From Escherichia phage N7, in sequence record MH717096.1: DNA of 38,829 nucleotides; one strand, written 5' to 3'. The position numbers were made by a program, and so were the translations under genes. A model generated the notes under the pieces. The model was not told the origin of the DNA. It was given only the letters and a program-made list of their open reading frames with translations, and did not search any database. Below, piece after piece: positions 6,828 to 38,566 of this stretch. Position 1 is the first letter of the stretch. Each line of letters begins with the position of its first letter.

Positions 6828-6835
6828 GTGAATAA

Positions 6836-8254
6836 ATGCCGATTCAGCAACTTCCGCTCATGAAAGGTGTCGGCAAAGACTTCCGAAATGCCGACTATAT
6901 AGACTATCTGCCAGTGAATATGCTGGCTACACCCAAAGAAATCCTGAACAGCAGCGGATATCTTCGCTCATTCCCGGGCATTGCCAAACGTTCTGATGTG
7001 AACGGTGTATCGCGCGGCGTCGAGTACAACATGGCGCAGAGTGCTGTTTATCGCGTGTGTGGTGGCAAGCTGTACAAAGGCGAAAGTGAAGTCGGTGATG
7101 TTGCCGGAAGTGGTCGCGTATCAATGGCACATGGTCGGACATCACAGGCGGTAGGTGTTAACGGGCAACTGGTCGAATACCGCTATGATGGCACGGTTAA
7201 AACCGTCTCAAACTGGCCTACAGATAGCGGATTCACTCAGTATGAGTTAGGTTCGGTTCGTGACATTACACGATTACGTGGGCGTTATGCGTGGTCAAAA
7301 GACGGCACTGATTCATGGTTTATCACTGACCTTGAAGACGAATCGCATCCTGACCGCTACAGCGCACAATATCGCGCAGAATCGCAGCCTGACGGCATCA
7401 TCGGCATAGGTACATGGCGAGACTTCATCGTCTGCTTTGGTTCATCGACGATTGAATATTTTTCCCTGACTGGTGCAACCACAGTTGGTGCTGCTTTGTA
7501 TGTCGCACAGCCATCGCTGATGGTGCAGAAAGGCATTGCCGGGACTTACTGCAAAACGCCGTTTGCTGATTCGTATGCGTTCATCAGCAATCCTGCAACA
7601 GGTGCGCCGTCTGTGTACATCATCGGCTCCGGTCAGGTGTCACCAATCGCCAGCGCGAGCATTGAGAAAATTCTCCGCTCCTACACTGCTGATGAACTGG
7701 CTGAGGGTGTGATGGAGTCTCTGCGATTTGATGCGCATGAGTTGCTGATTATCCACCTTCCTCGCCATGTTCTCGTGTACGACGCATCTTCAAGCGCCAA
7801 TGGTCCGCAATGGTGCGTACTGAAAACAGGACTGTATGACGATGTGTACCGCGCTATCGACTTCATTTATGAGGGCAATCAGATAACGTGCGGCGACAAA
7901 CTGGAATCGGTGACCGGGAAATTGCAGTTCGATATCAGCAGCCAGTACGACAAGCAACAGGAACACCTGCTGTTTACTCCGTTGTTCAAAGCGGATAACG
8001 CCAGATGTTTTGATCTGGAGGTGGAATCATCGACGGGTGTCGCTCAGTACGCCGACCGCCTGTTCCTCTCGGCAACCACTGATGGCATCAATTACGGTCG
8101 TGAGCAGATGATTGAGCAGAATGAACCGTTCGTTTACGACAAGCGTGTTTTGTGGAAGAGAGTAGGGCGCATCAGGAAAAATGTCGGCTTCAAATTGCGC
8201 GTTATCACGAAGTCACCTGTCACTCTGTCAGGCTGCCAGATAAGGATCGAGTAA
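6836..8254 (+). CDS. tail hub protein (P22 gp10-like)
   Basis: 472 aa, same length and position as P22 gp10; stop overlaps tail-needle start (TAATG). Confidence 0.65.
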
Positions 8255-22192: not shown

Positions 22193-22636
22193 TCACTCTC
22201 CTTTGATGCGAATGCCAGTAGCGCGGATTGCATCGATGACTTCAGAAACTTTGTATGCCATTACCGTTTGGTAATCATCGTGAAAATCTGTTCGATGAAG
22301 CATGCTGCTACGTTCCGGGAGCAGTATTTCCCGCGCTTTCAGTTCTGCAATGCGCTTTTTTGCTGCTTCCAGTTCATCCAGTAATTCCAGCACGGTAGCT
22401 GGATTGGCTGCGGCGATGAATTCAGCATTGGCCTGCTGTTCCATTTGGAAATCTTCATCGAAACCGCTTTCAGGATGCGCTCCTTCAATTCTGCAAATGG
22501 GAAGATATCCAACAACGTCACGATGAATTAGCGCATCATCACAATCAAATCGGCTCTCTCCATATTCGAGCGACCACACACCACACGTTGCTTTCTCTGC
22601 CTTTTCACGCAGTGCCTGATAGTCAATCTTGCTCAC
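22193..22636 (-). CDS. hypothetical early protein (Ead/Ea22-like by recollection)
   Basis: 147 aa; N-terminal ...YQALREKAEKATCGVWSL...; tightly packed in the early-left operon. Confidence 0.5.
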   Translation of the reverse strand: MSKIDYQALREKAEKATCGVWSLEYGESRFDCDDALIHRDVVGYLPICRIEGAHPESGFDEDFQMEQQANAEFIAAANPATVLELLDELEAAKKRIAELKAREILLPERSSMLHRTDFHDDYQTVMAYKVSEVIDAIRATGIRIKGE

Positions 22637-23064
22637 TGGTTGCCTCCTTTGCGAAGCTGGGCAGCAAAGTCACGGATAGTGTCATCAAGTTCTGGGCACA
22701 ACAGATGGTCAGCAAACATCTCCACGCCCTGCGCCCGTACTTCATCCAGAAAAGCATCGGTGGCTGGGGTTTCAGTAACATCATCTTCCCATTCGCTAAA
22801 CTCCTCACGACAAAAGTCATTAAATTCCTTCTCAGATTGCTTAAGCGAGGTATTTTCAGCAGCCATCTTCGCGCATTTAGCCTCAAGGTTATCAATCGTG
22901 ATTCCAGCAGAACGACACTCCCGCAACGCCGTTTCTAGTTTTGATTCAAGTTCACCGAACTTACGGGCAAGATATTCAGCGTTTGTTTCGTTAACCTTTA
23001 AATCTCGTGGGATGCATTTACCTTTCAGAAATCCATCCATCTCAATTAGTGACATTTGTTTCAT
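22633..23064 (-). CDS. hypothetical early protein (143 aa)
   Basis: Acidic helical protein; start overlaps upstream stop. Confidence 0.5.
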
Positions 23065-33325: not shown

Positions 33326-33501
33326 TGCTTAGCCCATCCCAATCCCTTCAATACCAGAAAGAAAGCGTCGAGCGGGCTTTAACGTGCGCTAACTGCGGCC
33401 AGAAGCTGCATGTGCTGGAAGTTCACGTGTGCTCCGATTGCTGCGCAGAACTGATGAGCGATCCGAATAGCTCAATGTACGAGGAAGAAGACGATGAATG
33501 A
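33325..33501 (+). CDS. NinF-like small Cys-rich protein (58 aa; not in ORF track)
   Basis: TAATG overlap with upstream stop; [40 protein letters not shown]..., resembles recalled lambda NinF; stop overlaps next start. Confidence 0.45.
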   Translation: MLSPSQSLQYQKESVERALTCANCGQKLHVLEVHVCSDCCAELMSDPNSSMYEEEDDE

Positions 33502-34216
33502 GTTAATAAATGGCAATGCCATCAAAATGACAAGCATTGAAATCGCTGAGTTGGTGGGTAAGCGTCATGACAATGTGAAACGTACCATCGAAACGCTGGC
33601 TAAAAATGGTGTTATCCGGCTTCCTCAAATTGAGGTTTCCGAAAGAATCAATAACTTAGGGTTCAATGTTCAGTACGAGCATTACGTCTTCGAGGGCGAA
33701 CAAGGTAAGCGAGACAGTATTGTCGTTGTTGCCCAGTTGTCGCCAGAGTTCACCGCTCGCCTTGTTGACCGTTGGCGAGAGCTTGAAGAAGCTGCGGTTA
33801 ATATCCCCAAAACGCTACCGGAAGCGTTGCGCCTTGCTGCTGATCTTGCTGAGCAGAAAATGCAGCTGGAAAACCAGCTCGCAATTGCCGCACCTAAAGT
33901 TGAGTTTGCCGATCGCGTTGGCGAGGCCAGCGGAATTTTGATTGGAAACTTTGCAAAGGTTGTTGGAATTGGTCCAAACAAACTGTTTGCGTGGATGCGC
34001 GATCACAAAATCCTTATTGCTTCAGGTTCCCGGCGCAATGTGCCAATGCAGGAATATATGGATCGCGGCTATTTCACAGTGAAAGAAACAGCGGTCAACA
34101 CAAATCACGGAATACAGATATCGTTCACTACAAAAATCACCGGACGTGGCCAACAGTGGCTGACCAGAAAGCTGCTCGATAACGGAATGCTGAAAGTAAC
34201 CGGGGAGGCTGCTTAA
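33494..34216 (+). CDS. Rha-family regulatory protein with KilAC-like C-domain (antirepressor-like)
   Basis: N-terminal MTSIEIAELVGKRHDNVKRTIETL fits the Rha family; C-terminal part resembles antirepressor domains. Confidence 0.6.
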   Translation: MNELINGNAIKMTSIEIAELVGKRHDNVKRTIETLAKNGVIRLPQIEVSERINNLGFNVQYEHYVFEGEQGKRDSIVVVAQLSPEFTARLVDRWRELEEAAVNIPKTLPEALRLAADLAEQKMQLENQLAIAAPKVEFADRVGEASGILIGNFAKVVGIGPNKLFAWMRDHKILIASGSRRNVPMQEYMDRGYFTVKETAVNTNHGIQISFTTKITGRGQQWLTRKLLDNGMLKVTGEAA

Positions 34217-34865: not shown

Positions 34866-35050
34866 ACGCCACAATTCAAACGATACCAGAGCTTCTTATC
34901 CAGACACGAGGCAATCAGACCGAAGTGGCGAGGATGCTTTCCTGCGCAAGAGGAACAGTGCTCAAGTACAACCGAGACAGCAAAGGCGAGCGTCACGTAA
35001 TAGTTAACGGCGTCCTGATGGTCAAACAGGGCAAGAGGGGAAGACGATGA
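34862..35050 (+). CDS. NinH-like small DNA-binding protein
   Basis: 62 aa; HTH-like QTEVARMLSCARGTVLKY; ATGA overlaps on both sides. Confidence 0.5.
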   Translation: MNATIQTIPELLIQTRGNQTEVARMLSCARGTVLKYNRDSKGERHVIVNGVLMVKQGKRGRR

Positions 35051-35670
35051 GACTCGAAAGCGTAGCTAAATTTCATTCGCCAAAAAGCCCGATGATGAGC
35101 GACTCACCACGGGCCACGGCTTCTGACTCTCTTTCAGGTACTGATGTGATGGCTGCTATGGGGATGGCGCAATCACAAGCCGGATTCGGAATGGCTGCAT
35201 TCTGCGGTAAGCATGAACTCAGCCAGAACGACAAACAAAAGGCTATCAACTATCTGATGCAATTTGCACACAAGGTATCGGGGAAATACCGTGGTGTGGC
35301 AAAGCTTGAAGGAAATACTAAGGCAAAGGTACTGCAAGTTCTCGCAACATTCGCTTATGCGGATTATTGCCGTAGTGCCGCGACGCCGGGCGCAAGATGC
35401 AGAGATTGCCACGGTACAGGTCGGGCAGTTGATATAGCCAAAACAGAGCAGCGGGGGAGAGTTGTTGAGAAAGAGTGCGGAAGATGCAAAGGTGTCGGCT
35501 ATTCAAGGATGCCAGCAAGCGCCGCATATCGCGCTGTGACGATGCTAATCCCAAATCTTACCCAACCCACCTGGTCACGCACTGTTAAGCCGCTGTATGA
35601 CGCTCTGGTGGCGCAATGCCACAAAGAAGAGTCAATCGCAGACAACATTTTGAATGCGGTCACACGTTAG
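35047..35670 (+). CDS. Q: late antiterminator Q (lambda type)
   Basis: 207 aa; MRLESVAKFHSPKSPMMSDSPRATASD... and zinc-finger CRDCHGTGR...CGRCKG match recalled lambda Q. Confidence 0.9.
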   Translation: MRLESVAKFHSPKSPMMSDSPRATASDSLSGTDVMAAMGMAQSQAGFGMAAFCGKHELSQNDKQKAINYLMQFAHKVSGKYRGVAKLEGNTKAKVLQVLATFAYADYCRSAATPGARCRDCHGTGRAVDIAKTEQRGRVVEKECGRCKGVGYSRMPASAAYRAVTMLIPNLTQPTWSRTVKPLYDALVAQCHKEESIADNILNAVTR

Positions 35671-35712
35671 CAGCATGATTGCCACGGATGGCAACATATT
35701 AACGGCATAATA

Positions 35713-35741
35713 TTGACTCTTTGAATAAAGTTGGGTAAATT
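35713..35741 (+). promoter_or_regulatory. late promoter pR' (with qut region)
   Basis: TTGACT (35713-35718), 17-bp spacer, TAAATT (35736-35741), as recalled for lambda pR'. Confidence 0.55.
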
Positions 35742-35777
35742 TGACTCAACGATGGATAAATGCACTCGTTAAATAAA

Positions 35778-35805
35778 GCCCTGAGTTAATAGCTCGGGGC
35801 TTTTT
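35778..35805 (+). terminator. tR'-like terminator
   Basis: GCCCTGAG-TTAATAG-CTCGGGGC (one mismatch) followed by TTTTT. Confidence 0.6.
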
Positions 35806-35993
35806 GCGTTTTAAGCACGGCCTTTCTGAAAGCACATCAAGCCAAATACCAGACAGACAAAAATAATCACCTTATCCGCTGTGGCTACGGTGCGGTGTGC
35901 TTTGCATAAAAGAAAACCAGCGCAATGGCTGGCTTCGTGAAAGCGGGTGGCAAGAAGTTGTTGTCGATTAAAAATAAATACAAGGAGTAGCTT

Positions 35994-36515
35994 ATGCTAA
36001 GCGAAACAGCGAAAGATATCGCAGGATATGAAGGTAAATACTCCGTAACTACTGATGGCCGCGTTTATTCTCATTCGAGAGTTGATGCTCGTGGAAGGTT
36101 ACAGAAGGGCAGATGGCTTAAGCCTGTTAATCATAGTGATGGTTACTTGTATGTAAATCTCCGCGACAAAGGAGCACTTAAAAAACATTACATTCACAGG
36201 TTAGTGGCGGCTGCATTCATTGATAATCCAAACTCGCTTCCGCAGGTAAACCACATAAATGGAATCAAGTCTGACAACAGAGTAGATAATCTTGAGTGGG
36301 TTACTGGCTGCCAGAATATGGTCCATGCAAGCAAGTCAGGATTGCTAAACCCAATCAGTGGTGAGCGTCACTATTGTGCAAAACTCACTACTGAGCAAGT
36401 GAAAGAAATACGTGCGTGCAAATCAATGTCACAGCGTGAAATGGCGAGAATGTACGGCGTATCAAAAGCAACAATTGCAGGAATTCTTAACTATAAGACA
36501 TGGGTTATTTATTAA
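35994..36515 (+). CDS. HNH homing endonuclease
   Basis: 173 aa; SD AAGGAG; N-terminal GYEGKYSVTTDGRVYS motif, HNH core (...NHINGIKSDNRVDNLEWV...), C-terminal HTH; AT-rich flanks. Confidence 0.8.
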   Translation: MLSETAKDIAGYEGKYSVTTDGRVYSHSRVDARGRLQKGRWLKPVNHSDGYLYVNLRDKGALKKHYIHRLVAAAFIDNPNSLPQVNHINGIKSDNRVDNLEWVTGCQNMVHASKSGLLNPISGERHYCAKLTTEQVKEIRACKSMSQREMARMYGVSKATIAGILNYKTWVIY

Positions 36516-36742
36516 CTAATTAATTAAGAGCTCCCATTACAGGATGCATTTATGAGTGCATCCATTAATGGTCGTTAAATGCGATTGATATGGATACTGC
36601 GCAAACAGTATCCCTAATGGTCTCCTCGCGAAAACTGTGACGAGCAAACAGCGTTACCGCAAAATGTAGCCTGGATTTGTTCTATCAGTAACCGACCATA
36701 TTCCTAATTAAATAGAGCAAATCCCCTTATTGGGGGTAAGAC

Positions 36743-37066
36743 ATGAAGATGCCAGAAAAACATGACCTGTTAGCCGCCATTCTCGCGGCAAAGGAACAAG
36801 GCATCGGGGCAATCCTTGCGTTTGCAATGGCGTACCTTCGCGGCAGATATAATGGCGGTGCGTTTACAAAAACAGTAATCGACGCAACGATGTGCGCCAT
36901 TATCGCCTGGTTCATTCGTGACCTTCTCGACTTCGCCGGACTAAGTAGCAATCTCGCTTATATAACTAGCGTGTTCATCGGCTACATCGGTACTGACTCG
37001 ATTGGTTCGCTTATCAAACGCTTCGCTGCTAAAAAAGCCGGAGTAGAAGATGGTGGAAATCAATAA
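36743..37066 (+). CDS. S: holin S (dual-start)
   Basis: 107 aa [34 protein letters not shown]... matches recalled lambda S; Met1-Lys2-Met3 dual start. Confidence 0.9.
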
Positions 37067-37526: not shown

Positions 37527-37960
37527 GCAGAGTAACCGCGATTATCTCCGCTCTGGTTATCTGCATCATCGTCTGCCTGTCATGGGCTGTTAATCATTAC
37601 CGTGATAATGCAATCGCCTACAAAGAGCAGCGCGATAAAGCCACATCCACAATCGCTGACATGCAGAAGCGTCAACGTGATGTAGCAGAACTAGACGCCA
37701 GATATACAAAGGAGCTTGCTGATGCTAACGCGACTATCGAAAGTCTCCGTGATGATGTTTCTGCTGGGCGTAAGCGCCTGCAAGTCGCCGCCACCTGTGC
37801 AAAGTCAACGACCGGAGCCAGCGGCATGGGCGATGGAGAAAGCCCAAGACTTACAGCAGATGCTGAACTCAATTATTACCGTCTCCGAAGTGGAATCGAC
37901 AGGATAACCGCGCAGGTTAACTACCTGCAGGAGTACATCAGGACGCAATGCCTGAAATAA
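37523..37960 (+). CDS. Rz: spanin inner-membrane subunit Rz
   Basis: [30 protein letters not shown]... N-terminal TM then coiled coil, as in lambda Rz. Confidence 0.8.
37722..37907 (+). CDS. Rz1: spanin outer-membrane lipoprotein Rz1 (embedded in +1 frame of Rz)
   Basis: ATG at 37722 after AAGGAG; signal peptide with lipobox LLGVSA|C; proline-rich mature part. Confidence 0.6.
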
Positions 37961-37996
37961 TCGGGCGATGAAAAACAAAAAAAACAGGAGCAATAC

Positions 37997-38272
37997 ATGA
38001 CTAAGCTTTATCACCGCATCTCAACTTTTCTCTCTGGTTGCTGGGCGTTCATCACGTCTATTTCGTTCGCCATCTTTAGTTTCGGTAGCACAGCGTGCTC
38101 GCTTAGTCGGGGTCTGTGGCGTGCTATTTCAGCACTAGCGCCGAAATTTTTACCTGAAAAGGCTGTTTGGCGAATTGTAGAGCGAATGTGTAGTGAGAGC
38201 GTTCGCGAGAAGATTAACGTATTTGGACGTCATCCTCGAAATACAGGCGCATTGTGCAGTCCGTTACTGTAG
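37997..38272 (+). CDS. hypothetical protein (91 aa)
   Basis: SD CAGGAG 7 nt before ATG; hydrophobic N-terminal half; post-lysis moron position. Confidence 0.35.
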   Translation: MTKLYHRISTFLSGCWAFITSISFAIFSFGSTACSLSRGLWRAISALAPKFLPEKAVWRIVERMCSESVREKINVFGRHPRNTGALCSPLL

Positions 38273-38566
38273 TCATTACAAAGCCCATCTACGGGTGGGC
38301 TTGATAATGAAACCGGAATTTATTCTGGGAAACCAGTTACGGCAGTACCGCGAAACAACCCAAGCCAGTAAGTGGGGAAATAACACTGGCAGCCACTGAA
38401 AGATGAACCTCCAGCCTTATGGCAAAAAAGATTCTTTGTGGTGGCGGACTGATGGAAAGACATCGGTTATTGCAGAGGCCATTCAATGAGTGGTCTCGAC
38501 AATGGCTTATACCCTACACGGGATAACTTAACTGATATCCCTTTTAACGGATAAACGGAGCCAACA

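Follow-up and report, generated by a model that had tools for sequence, protein, structure and literature searches.

I-HmuI, the nicking HNH endonuclease of Bacillus phage SPO1 (PDB 1U3E), is encoded in a group I intron of a polymerase gene, and genes for enzymes like it are also known standing free of any intron. In the lactococcal Skunavirus, I-HmuI-like HNH genes are free-standing, optional and intergenic, their phylogenetic clusters match the locations of insertion, and truncated copies are common; homing and marker exclusion have been proposed as their role, and marker exclusion has been tested (PMC12724721). The mob (HNH) and seg (GIY-YIG) genes of phage T4 are free-standing as well, often as promoter-less cassettes, and their spread is termed 'intronless homing' (PMC2988022). 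Here we describe a gene of this kind in Escherichia phage N7 (sequence record MH717096.1), whose 38,829 nucleotides, by sequence similarity a complete Sf6/HK620-like (P22-like) podophage genome, form the window that was analysed. The gene lies in the leader of the late operon, between the gene of the antiterminator Q and the holin gene S, and we consider it likely, judging from the sequence, that it is a free-standing (not intron-borne), promoter-less homing endonuclease gene of the I-HmuI type, carried on a cassette of about 685 bp and expressed from Q-antiterminated late transcripts. The kind of element is already known, clades of I-HmuI-like genes that map to insertion sites having been described for the lactococcal phages (PMC12724721), and the N7 cassette is an ordinary, expected example of it, already named by automatic annotation (WP_000947860.1, 'NUMOD4 domain-containing protein'; 'HNH homing endonuclease' in phage 29485). 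No paper on a clade of HNH or homing endonucleases between Q and holin of lambdoid or P22-like phages was found in a literature search outside the subscription journals.

The encoded protein is of nearly the same length as I-HmuI (173 against 174 residues) and has the same order of domains, with an N-terminal beta-sheet NUMOD4 region, an HNH(N) beta-beta-alpha-metal motif and a C-terminal helix-turn-helix (HTH). Pfam matches cover NUMOD4 (PF07463) at residues 7-57 (E = 9.1e-12; 45.5 bits, cut-off 23.4) and HNH_3 at residues 65-109 (E = 1e-8), and a match to HTH_3 falls just below threshold (21.5 bits, cut-off 23); in the AlphaFold (AF2) model the HTH occupies residues ~133-165, with helices at 133-141, 147-154 and 158-165. 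The protein also matches the PHROGs family phrog_59, 'HNH endonuclease' (6e-58), and the PADLOC model 'HEase' (2.5e-21). The only sequence match in the PDB is I-HmuI itself (1U3E, 7e-11), and the AF2 model, built on 38 homologues with a pLDDT of 89, has 1U3E as its only significant Foldseek match, over the whole length (185 columns, probability 1.00, E = 5.8e-9), at a TM score of only 0.53, a value to be expected when an extended protein of several domains is modelled in the absence of DNA. Within the HNH(N) motif, H87, N99 and N108 align with H75, N87 and N96 of I-HmuI, and N86, H87, N99, N108 and H111 are invariant across the 38 homologues, down to 39% identity. Since the catalytic residues are invariant, the motif is called intact rather than dead, the original prediction having named a dead motif as one outcome that would tell against it. 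Among seven alleles at the Q-holin site dN/dS is 0.2-0.4, by which measure the endonuclease gene is under purifying selection. Sequence and model comparison thus confirmed that the open reading frame (ORF) encodes an intact endonuclease of the I-HmuI type with NUMOD4, HNH_3 and a C-terminal HTH. The two proteins differ in that they share only 26% identity, with an Asn in the N7 protein where I-HmuI has D74, and in that the N7 gene is free-standing in an untranslated leader, its type of host being a temperate lambdoid phage of enterobacteria. No paralogue of the endonuclease was found within the window.

The limits of the cassette (Table 1) were taken from BLAST comparison with HK544, HK022 and lambda, which match N7 at 95-98% up to position 35960 and again from 36666, so that the 705 bp at 35961-36665 stand in place of 66 bp in these phages. 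The cassette itself, which lies downstream of pR'/tR' and upstream of S, is absent from all three and from P22. The comparison with lambda and other lambdoid phages that the original prediction proposed thus gave defined boundaries, although narrower ones than the span it had named: 35671-36742 is the whole Q-S interval, of which the insert occupies only 35961-36665 and the cassette about 35961-36644. These last limits come from three Salmonella-type IMG/VR loci (L034-L036), in which the coding sequence is 98% and the untranslated regions (UTRs) are 94-96% identical to the N7 cassette, while the flanks are 97.5-98.7% identical to P22 and only 39-65% identical to the leader and pre-S sequence of N7. 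Because the loci share the cassette but have P22-type flanks, the travelling unit probably extends from about 35957/35961 to 36644, and they are the clearest evidence, by sequence comparison, for a discrete unit that travels. Between it and the pre-S leader, the patch at 36645-36665 has the P22 form within an otherwise HK544-like flank and is possibly a co-conversion tract from a Salmonella-type donor. The GC content is 0.37-0.45 across the insert as against 0.47-0.53 in Q, S and R, and the endonuclease gene has AT-rich flanks (TTGTCGATTAAAAATAAATAC on the 5' side and TAACTAATTAATTAAG on the 3' side). A transposable element was considered and rejected, as the cassette ends have neither terminal repeats, inverted ones included, nor a target-site duplication.

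Table 1. Features of the Q-S interval of phage N7 and of the cassette within it (positions in the window).
Feature	Position	Strand	Basis or remarks
Q antiterminator gene, lambda type	35047-35670	+	Pfam PF03589 Antiterm, 2e-57
Late promoter pR', TTGACT-17-TAAATT, overlapping the qut region	35713-35741	+	Consensus scan
tR'-like intrinsic terminator	35775-35803 + T tail (to 35813)	+	13-bp stem, then T-run
Resident late leader, left flank of the cassette	35811-35960	+	97.5% identity to HK544 up to 35960
Homing-endonuclease cassette (5' UTR with Shine-Dalgarno sequence, ORF, structured 3' region)	35961-36644	+	About 685 bp
Shine-Dalgarno sequence AAGGAG	35982-35987	+	6 nt 5' of the ATG
I-HmuI-like HNH endonuclease gene, 173 aa	35994-36515	+	Pfam, PHROG, PDB and AF2/Foldseek matches
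Hairpin hp1, just 3' of the stop codon	36534-36571	+	-20.4 kcal/mol, z = -5.0
Hairpin hp2, GGATACTG-CGCAAA-CAGTATCC	36592-36613	+	Stem internally complementary
P22-like patch in the HK544-like flank	36645-36665	+	N7 = P22, GTTACCGCAAAATGTA; HK544, HK022 and lambda, ATTACTAAACACAGTA
Resident pre-S leader	36666-36742	+	98.5% identity to HK544, 97.8% to lambda
Holin gene S, lambda family	36743-37066	+	Pfam PF05106 Phage_holin_3_1, 2e-30

The 66 bp that were replaced contain a conserved leader hairpin, GGCAGGAGGTTG-CGCTAA-CAACCTCATGCC. In phages without the homing-endonuclease gene (HEG-, as opposed to HEG+ alleles, which have it) the arm GCGGGTGGCAAGAAGTTG pairs with CAACCTCATGCC across the loop CGCTAA, and the left junction of the cassette falls exactly 3' of this 5' arm. 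The segment 36579-36644 of the cassette aligns with the 49-66 bp segment that was replaced and contains hp2 and, after it, a diverged version of the ensuing ~30 nt. When nine distinct HEG+ alleles were compared with four HEG- alleles, all columns without any base common to the two groups (19/19) fell within 36579-36644, and none was found from 36645 to the start of S. The segment 36579-36644 is therefore a candidate for an altered recognition site that would give the carrier self-immunity. Compared with the resident hairpin, hp2 has what we regard as the same loop (CGCAAA against CGCTAA) on a different stem, and such mimicry suggests that the leader needs a structure of this sort. The 6-nt loop is CGCAAA in N7 and its reverse complement, TTTGCG, in Salmonella phage ST-35 (locus L002, 3992-4019) and in locus L009, on an unchanged stem, pointing to inversion of the loop through the hp2 stem. 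The resident hairpin followed by GTTTTG was also considered as a second late terminator, an idea that we dropped, as the stem is two-tiered and the U-run lies in an internal loop.

As a whole, the sequence from the stop codon to S is predicted to fold far better than shuffled sequence (z = -4.2). Among 10 alleles, two pairs of hp1 covary, and compensatory changes occur in 7 of the 52 predicted pairs, including pairs of hp1 and hp2. The pre-S leader at 36666-36742 is predicted to form a long-range stem, with a further hairpin at the start of S. No Rfam family matched within 35600-36800, even at E <= 1.

The cassette is rare. A search of 5,426 complete E. coli genomes gave 307 with a match to the Q-S stretch, and the insert is present, at least 99% identical, in 6 of these; the empty site shows as a span of 182 bp in rows with matches to both flanks. 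The six carriers are prophages that differ from one another in their immunity, nin, post-lysis and terminase modules. A homologue occupies the site in 2 of the 166 phage records that match the flanks. One is ST-35, where a homologue with 70% amino acid identity is carried on 704 bp in place of 69 bp of P22, within flanks that are 97% identical to P22; the other is phage 29485, where a homologue with 63% amino acid identity follows a P22-like left leader, between an unrelated Q and holin. Universal conservation at the site, a finding that would have spoken against an insertion, is thus far from what these surveys returned. Scans with the protein yielded 34 loci in IMG/VR and zero confirmed loci among GTDB genome contigs, and more diverged alleles (63-90% amino acid identity) are found at the same leader position. 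Taken together, these comparisons show the cassette, as far as can be read from sequence, to be an optional, discrete, sporadically distributed and site-faithful unit.

The fidelity to the site extends to relatives in otherwise dissimilar phages. All relatives of at least 62% identity that could be placed lie between a Q antiterminator gene and a holin gene (7 loci and a further 28 from IMG/VR), and in these Q-holin loci the holin gene always begins 223-227 bp after the HNH stop codon. The Q proteins at carrier loci belong to PF03589 (in several lengths), to PF06530/DUF1133 or to a 203-aa type without a family, and the holins are of the Phage_holin_3_1 or Phage_holin_2_3 type. The homology that is common to all carriers runs from just 3' of each phage's tR'-type terminator to the start of the holin gene; because it is confined there and neither Q nor holin is conserved, the common target most plausibly lies in the non-coding leader. 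More distant relatives occupy other sites, those at 54-56% identity lying between the lysis genes and terS and those at 45-49% between replication gene O and a primase-helicase gene. The N7-type family thus has the same clade-to-site pattern as the Skunavirus genes, with the difference that the latter belong to virulent phages of Gram-positive bacteria and mostly use sites in the replication module, whereas N7 is a temperate lambdoid phage with the gene in the Q-dependent late leader.

Decay and recombination, which are typical of homing endonuclease elements, are both apparent among the alleles. Loci L057 (2009-2311) and L058 (2501-2803) share a GAG-to-TAG nonsense mutation at the invariant E101 although their Q genes differ, and L059 (1-512) is a decayed copy that has lost residues 1-81 beside an IS-like end sequence. 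The chimeric allele P0004 (locus L009, 3001-3519) is identical to the N7 type (P0002) in its N-terminal half and to the ST-35 type (P0006) in its C-terminal half, pointing to recombination between alleles inside the endonuclease gene.

Other endonuclease genes were met with in the same leader and elsewhere in related genomes. Directly upstream of the NUMOD4-HNH cassette, in the late leader, L008 (2241-2732), L035 (1930-2418) and L036 carry a second, unrelated HNH gene (HNH_3 + AP2-like, 162-163 aa), from which it appears that the late leader can hold endonuclease genes in tandem. The E. coli SWYH.B349aT prophage (L006), 97.6% identical to N7 over Q-Rz, has a gene for a GIY-YIG nuclease (22402-22887) between Rz and a DUF2560 gene; N7 is without it (~37960-38330), so this interval would be another optional endonuclease site. 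Carrier prophage L019 has a second NUMOD4-HNH gene (6830-7339; WP_001286130.1) in its nin region, at a position where N7 has a KilAC antirepressor-like gene (33494-34216).

The resident features around the cassette are those of a lambdoid late operon, and the lambda-like Q, pR', tR' and pre-S sequence of the original prediction are all present by Pfam match, consensus scan and alignment, as is the 173-aa HNH endonuclease between tR' and S, with its strong Shine-Dalgarno sequence and AT-rich flanks. Q is 96% identical in nucleotide sequence to that of ST-35, pR' is identical in form to lambda pR' and corresponds in alignment to pR'/qut as annotated in HK544 and P22, and the tR'-like site aligns with the annotated P22 tR' terminator and is the sole terminator-like site of the consensus scan on the + strand from pR' to S. 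The lambda-type lysis genes S, R and Rz follow at the right end of the window. The hairpin CCAGCGCAATGGCTGG at 35913-35936 is kept in all leader variants compared; a T-run follows it in the minus-strand reading, where it was flagged as terminator-like. Elsewhere in the window, 15426-15493 (-) matches the Rfam model of sar RNA, the P22 antisense regulator of ant, with 94 bits, as expected because the immI region is P22-like.

As to its own signals, the cassette has a Shine-Dalgarno sequence that is kept as (A/T)(A/G)GGAG in every HEG+ allele and lies in a region without significant structure (z = -0.77). Consensus scans found neither a promoter on the + strand between tR' and the ORF nor a terminator on the + strand 3' of the ORF, both weak negatives, and hp1 and hp2 lack T-runs. 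The two promoter-like sites found in the region compare with 2.6 expected by chance; an antisense promoter-like site within the endonuclease gene (36130-36157, -; TTTACA-16-TATGAT) matches 10 of 12 consensus positions. Because no promoter of its own was found and the cassette lies downstream of tR', its transcription is probably Q-dependent.

We suggest that the cassette would be transcribed only by Q-modified RNA polymerase from pR', and hence late in lytic growth, a stage at which copies of the phage genome would be numerous and the phage recombination functions present, and that the endonuclease would be translated freely, given the unstructured ribosome-binding region. In a co-resident or co-infecting lambdoid genome without the gene, the cognate leader would then be nicked or cut by the enzyme, and recombinational repair from the carrier genome would copy the cassette together with a short flanking tract into the cut genome, while the diverged segment at 36579-36644 would protect the DNA of the carrier. 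This proposal of nicking and repair follows what is established for I-HmuI-like endonucleases and for the free-standing ones of T4 (PMC12724721, PMC2988022). As with mob and seg of T4, a promoter-less cassette sits between conserved genes and rides on an existing transcript; for the T4 genes, too, protection of the carrier is attributed to differences in the target sequence, and flanking DNA is co-converted (PMC2988022). The T4 enzymes differ in usually cutting a nearby conserved coding gene, often hundreds of bp away, whereas the N7 target probably lies in the leader.

The Q-S leader also accommodates cargo of other kinds, which uses the same landing zone downstream of pR'/tR' and likewise depends on Q read-through. 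The stx genes of Stx phages lie in this lambdoid late leader. Genes for tRNAs have been noted in the same leader for Salmonella prophages (PMC2629481). Such cargo differs from the N7 cassette in affecting the host or supporting translation and in not consisting of self-mobilising nuclease genes. In locus L010 the cassette is preceded, within the late leader, by genes for tRNA-Asn(GTT) (2666-2740) and tRNA-Thr(TGT) (2746-2820), and upstream of them an ORF of 375 aa (1407-2534) matches both HNH_3 and DUF1133/antitermQ, as if an HNH domain had been fused to Q.

Several points weigh against regarding the cassette as a homing element. Where the original prediction spoke of a gene inserted in the leader, the presence/absence polymorphism is clean, but 49-66 bp of the resident leader were lost in exchange for the cassette, so that the insertion was not a clean one, and an orphan 5' hairpin arm was left upstream at 35943-35960. 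The promoter scan matched the sigma-70 consensus only, and where I-HmuI has the metal ligand D74 the N7 protein has an Asn (N86), which is itself invariant in the clade. Nucleotide diversity among 10 carriers falls from 0.9-3% in the flanks to a pi of 0.11% over the insert, but we dropped this trough, which spans the insert and S, as evidence of homing: any young, rare haplotype gives the same, S is conserved also in three HEG- controls, and population structure could explain the trough too. Moreover, lambdoid phages constantly swap modules by ordinary recombination at conserved linkers, and because the shared leader is such a linker, the same cassette in differing backgrounds is by itself no proof of nuclease-driven spread. 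On these grounds the cassette might be an ordinary mosaic module, its nuclease gene a passenger that general homologous recombination in the flanking leader has spread and whose own activity is irrelevant. The leader on both sides of the cassette is indeed common to phages with unrelated Q and holin genes and offers ready homology, the Q types do swap upstream of an identical block of cassette plus holin (12 loci with one downstream and at least nine upstream sequences), and the diversity trough fits either model. We nevertheless consider this unlikely, as sub-clades that each keep to one site (Q-holin, lysis-terS or O-primase) are unexpected under random shuffling, as a gene that most relatives lack nevertheless has invariant catalytic residues and is under apparent purifying selection, and as the fixed differences linked to the HEG directly adjoin the gene.

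The original prediction had left open a moron or a homing insertion, and of these the relatives of the gene support the latter. A moron, or a weapon in competition that is kept for harming rival phages or serving the lysogen without copying itself, would fit the GC content, which is below that of the neighbouring genes, and marker exclusion is known for I-HmuI-type enzymes (PMC12724721, PMC2988022), an activity that is equally compatible with homing; such a role is quite unlikely here, since the consensus scan found no promoter or terminator belonging to the cassette, which makes expression from a repressed prophage unlikely, and since an occupancy of ~2% and the decayed copies argue against a strong selective benefit. 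It is improbable that the gene is an inactive relic, its ORF intact and its enzyme no longer able to cut, for instance through the Asn at the position of the Asp ligand. Alignment of N86 with D74 and the decayed alleles of the family speak for such a relic, but the invariance of N86 in 38 homologues, down to 39% identity, makes this residue the family's normal state, and the dN/dS values and the confident model, I-HmuI-like over its full length, also argue against it. Domestication for a function that the phage needs, such as that of a terminase cofactor in packaging (HK97 gp74/GVE2-like), has precedents in phage HNH proteins with packaging roles (PMC12724721) but appears extremely unlikely for a gene that lies between Q and S rather than beside the terminase genes, that is missing from ~98% of close relatives whose late genes are the same, and that has the NUMOD4/HNH_3/HTH architecture of I-HmuI. 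It would also be unexpected in a P22/Sf6-like podophage, as N7 is by sequence similarity, these phages packaging by a headful mechanism.

A broader reading goes beyond that of a homing cassette and is one that we regard as rather doubtful: that the late leader is a landing pad for homing endonucleases, whose breaks drive the exchange of Q and lysis modules, and that the cassette brings its own replacement for a required leader hairpin, with the same loop and a re-paired stem, and could thereby do away with the resident hairpin at no cost to late expression. If this were true, the well-known mosaic junction at the Q-lysis boundary would be directly due to a selfish nuclease.

Work on homing endonucleases has for the most part concerned virulent phages, T4, SPO1 and the lactococcal phages among them, and the N7-type clade appears to be specialised for a non-coding, Q-controlled leader that many temperate phages and prophages of enterobacteria share. 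In practical terms it would offer a small, late-expressed and probably sequence-specific nicking enzyme whose presumed natural target has been narrowed to ~65 bp. If active, the enzyme would bias the inheritance of the Q-lysis region in mixed infections, and the same may happen when several prophages are induced together; it could thereby help to explain why the Q-lysis junction is a frequent mosaic boundary and cargo site.

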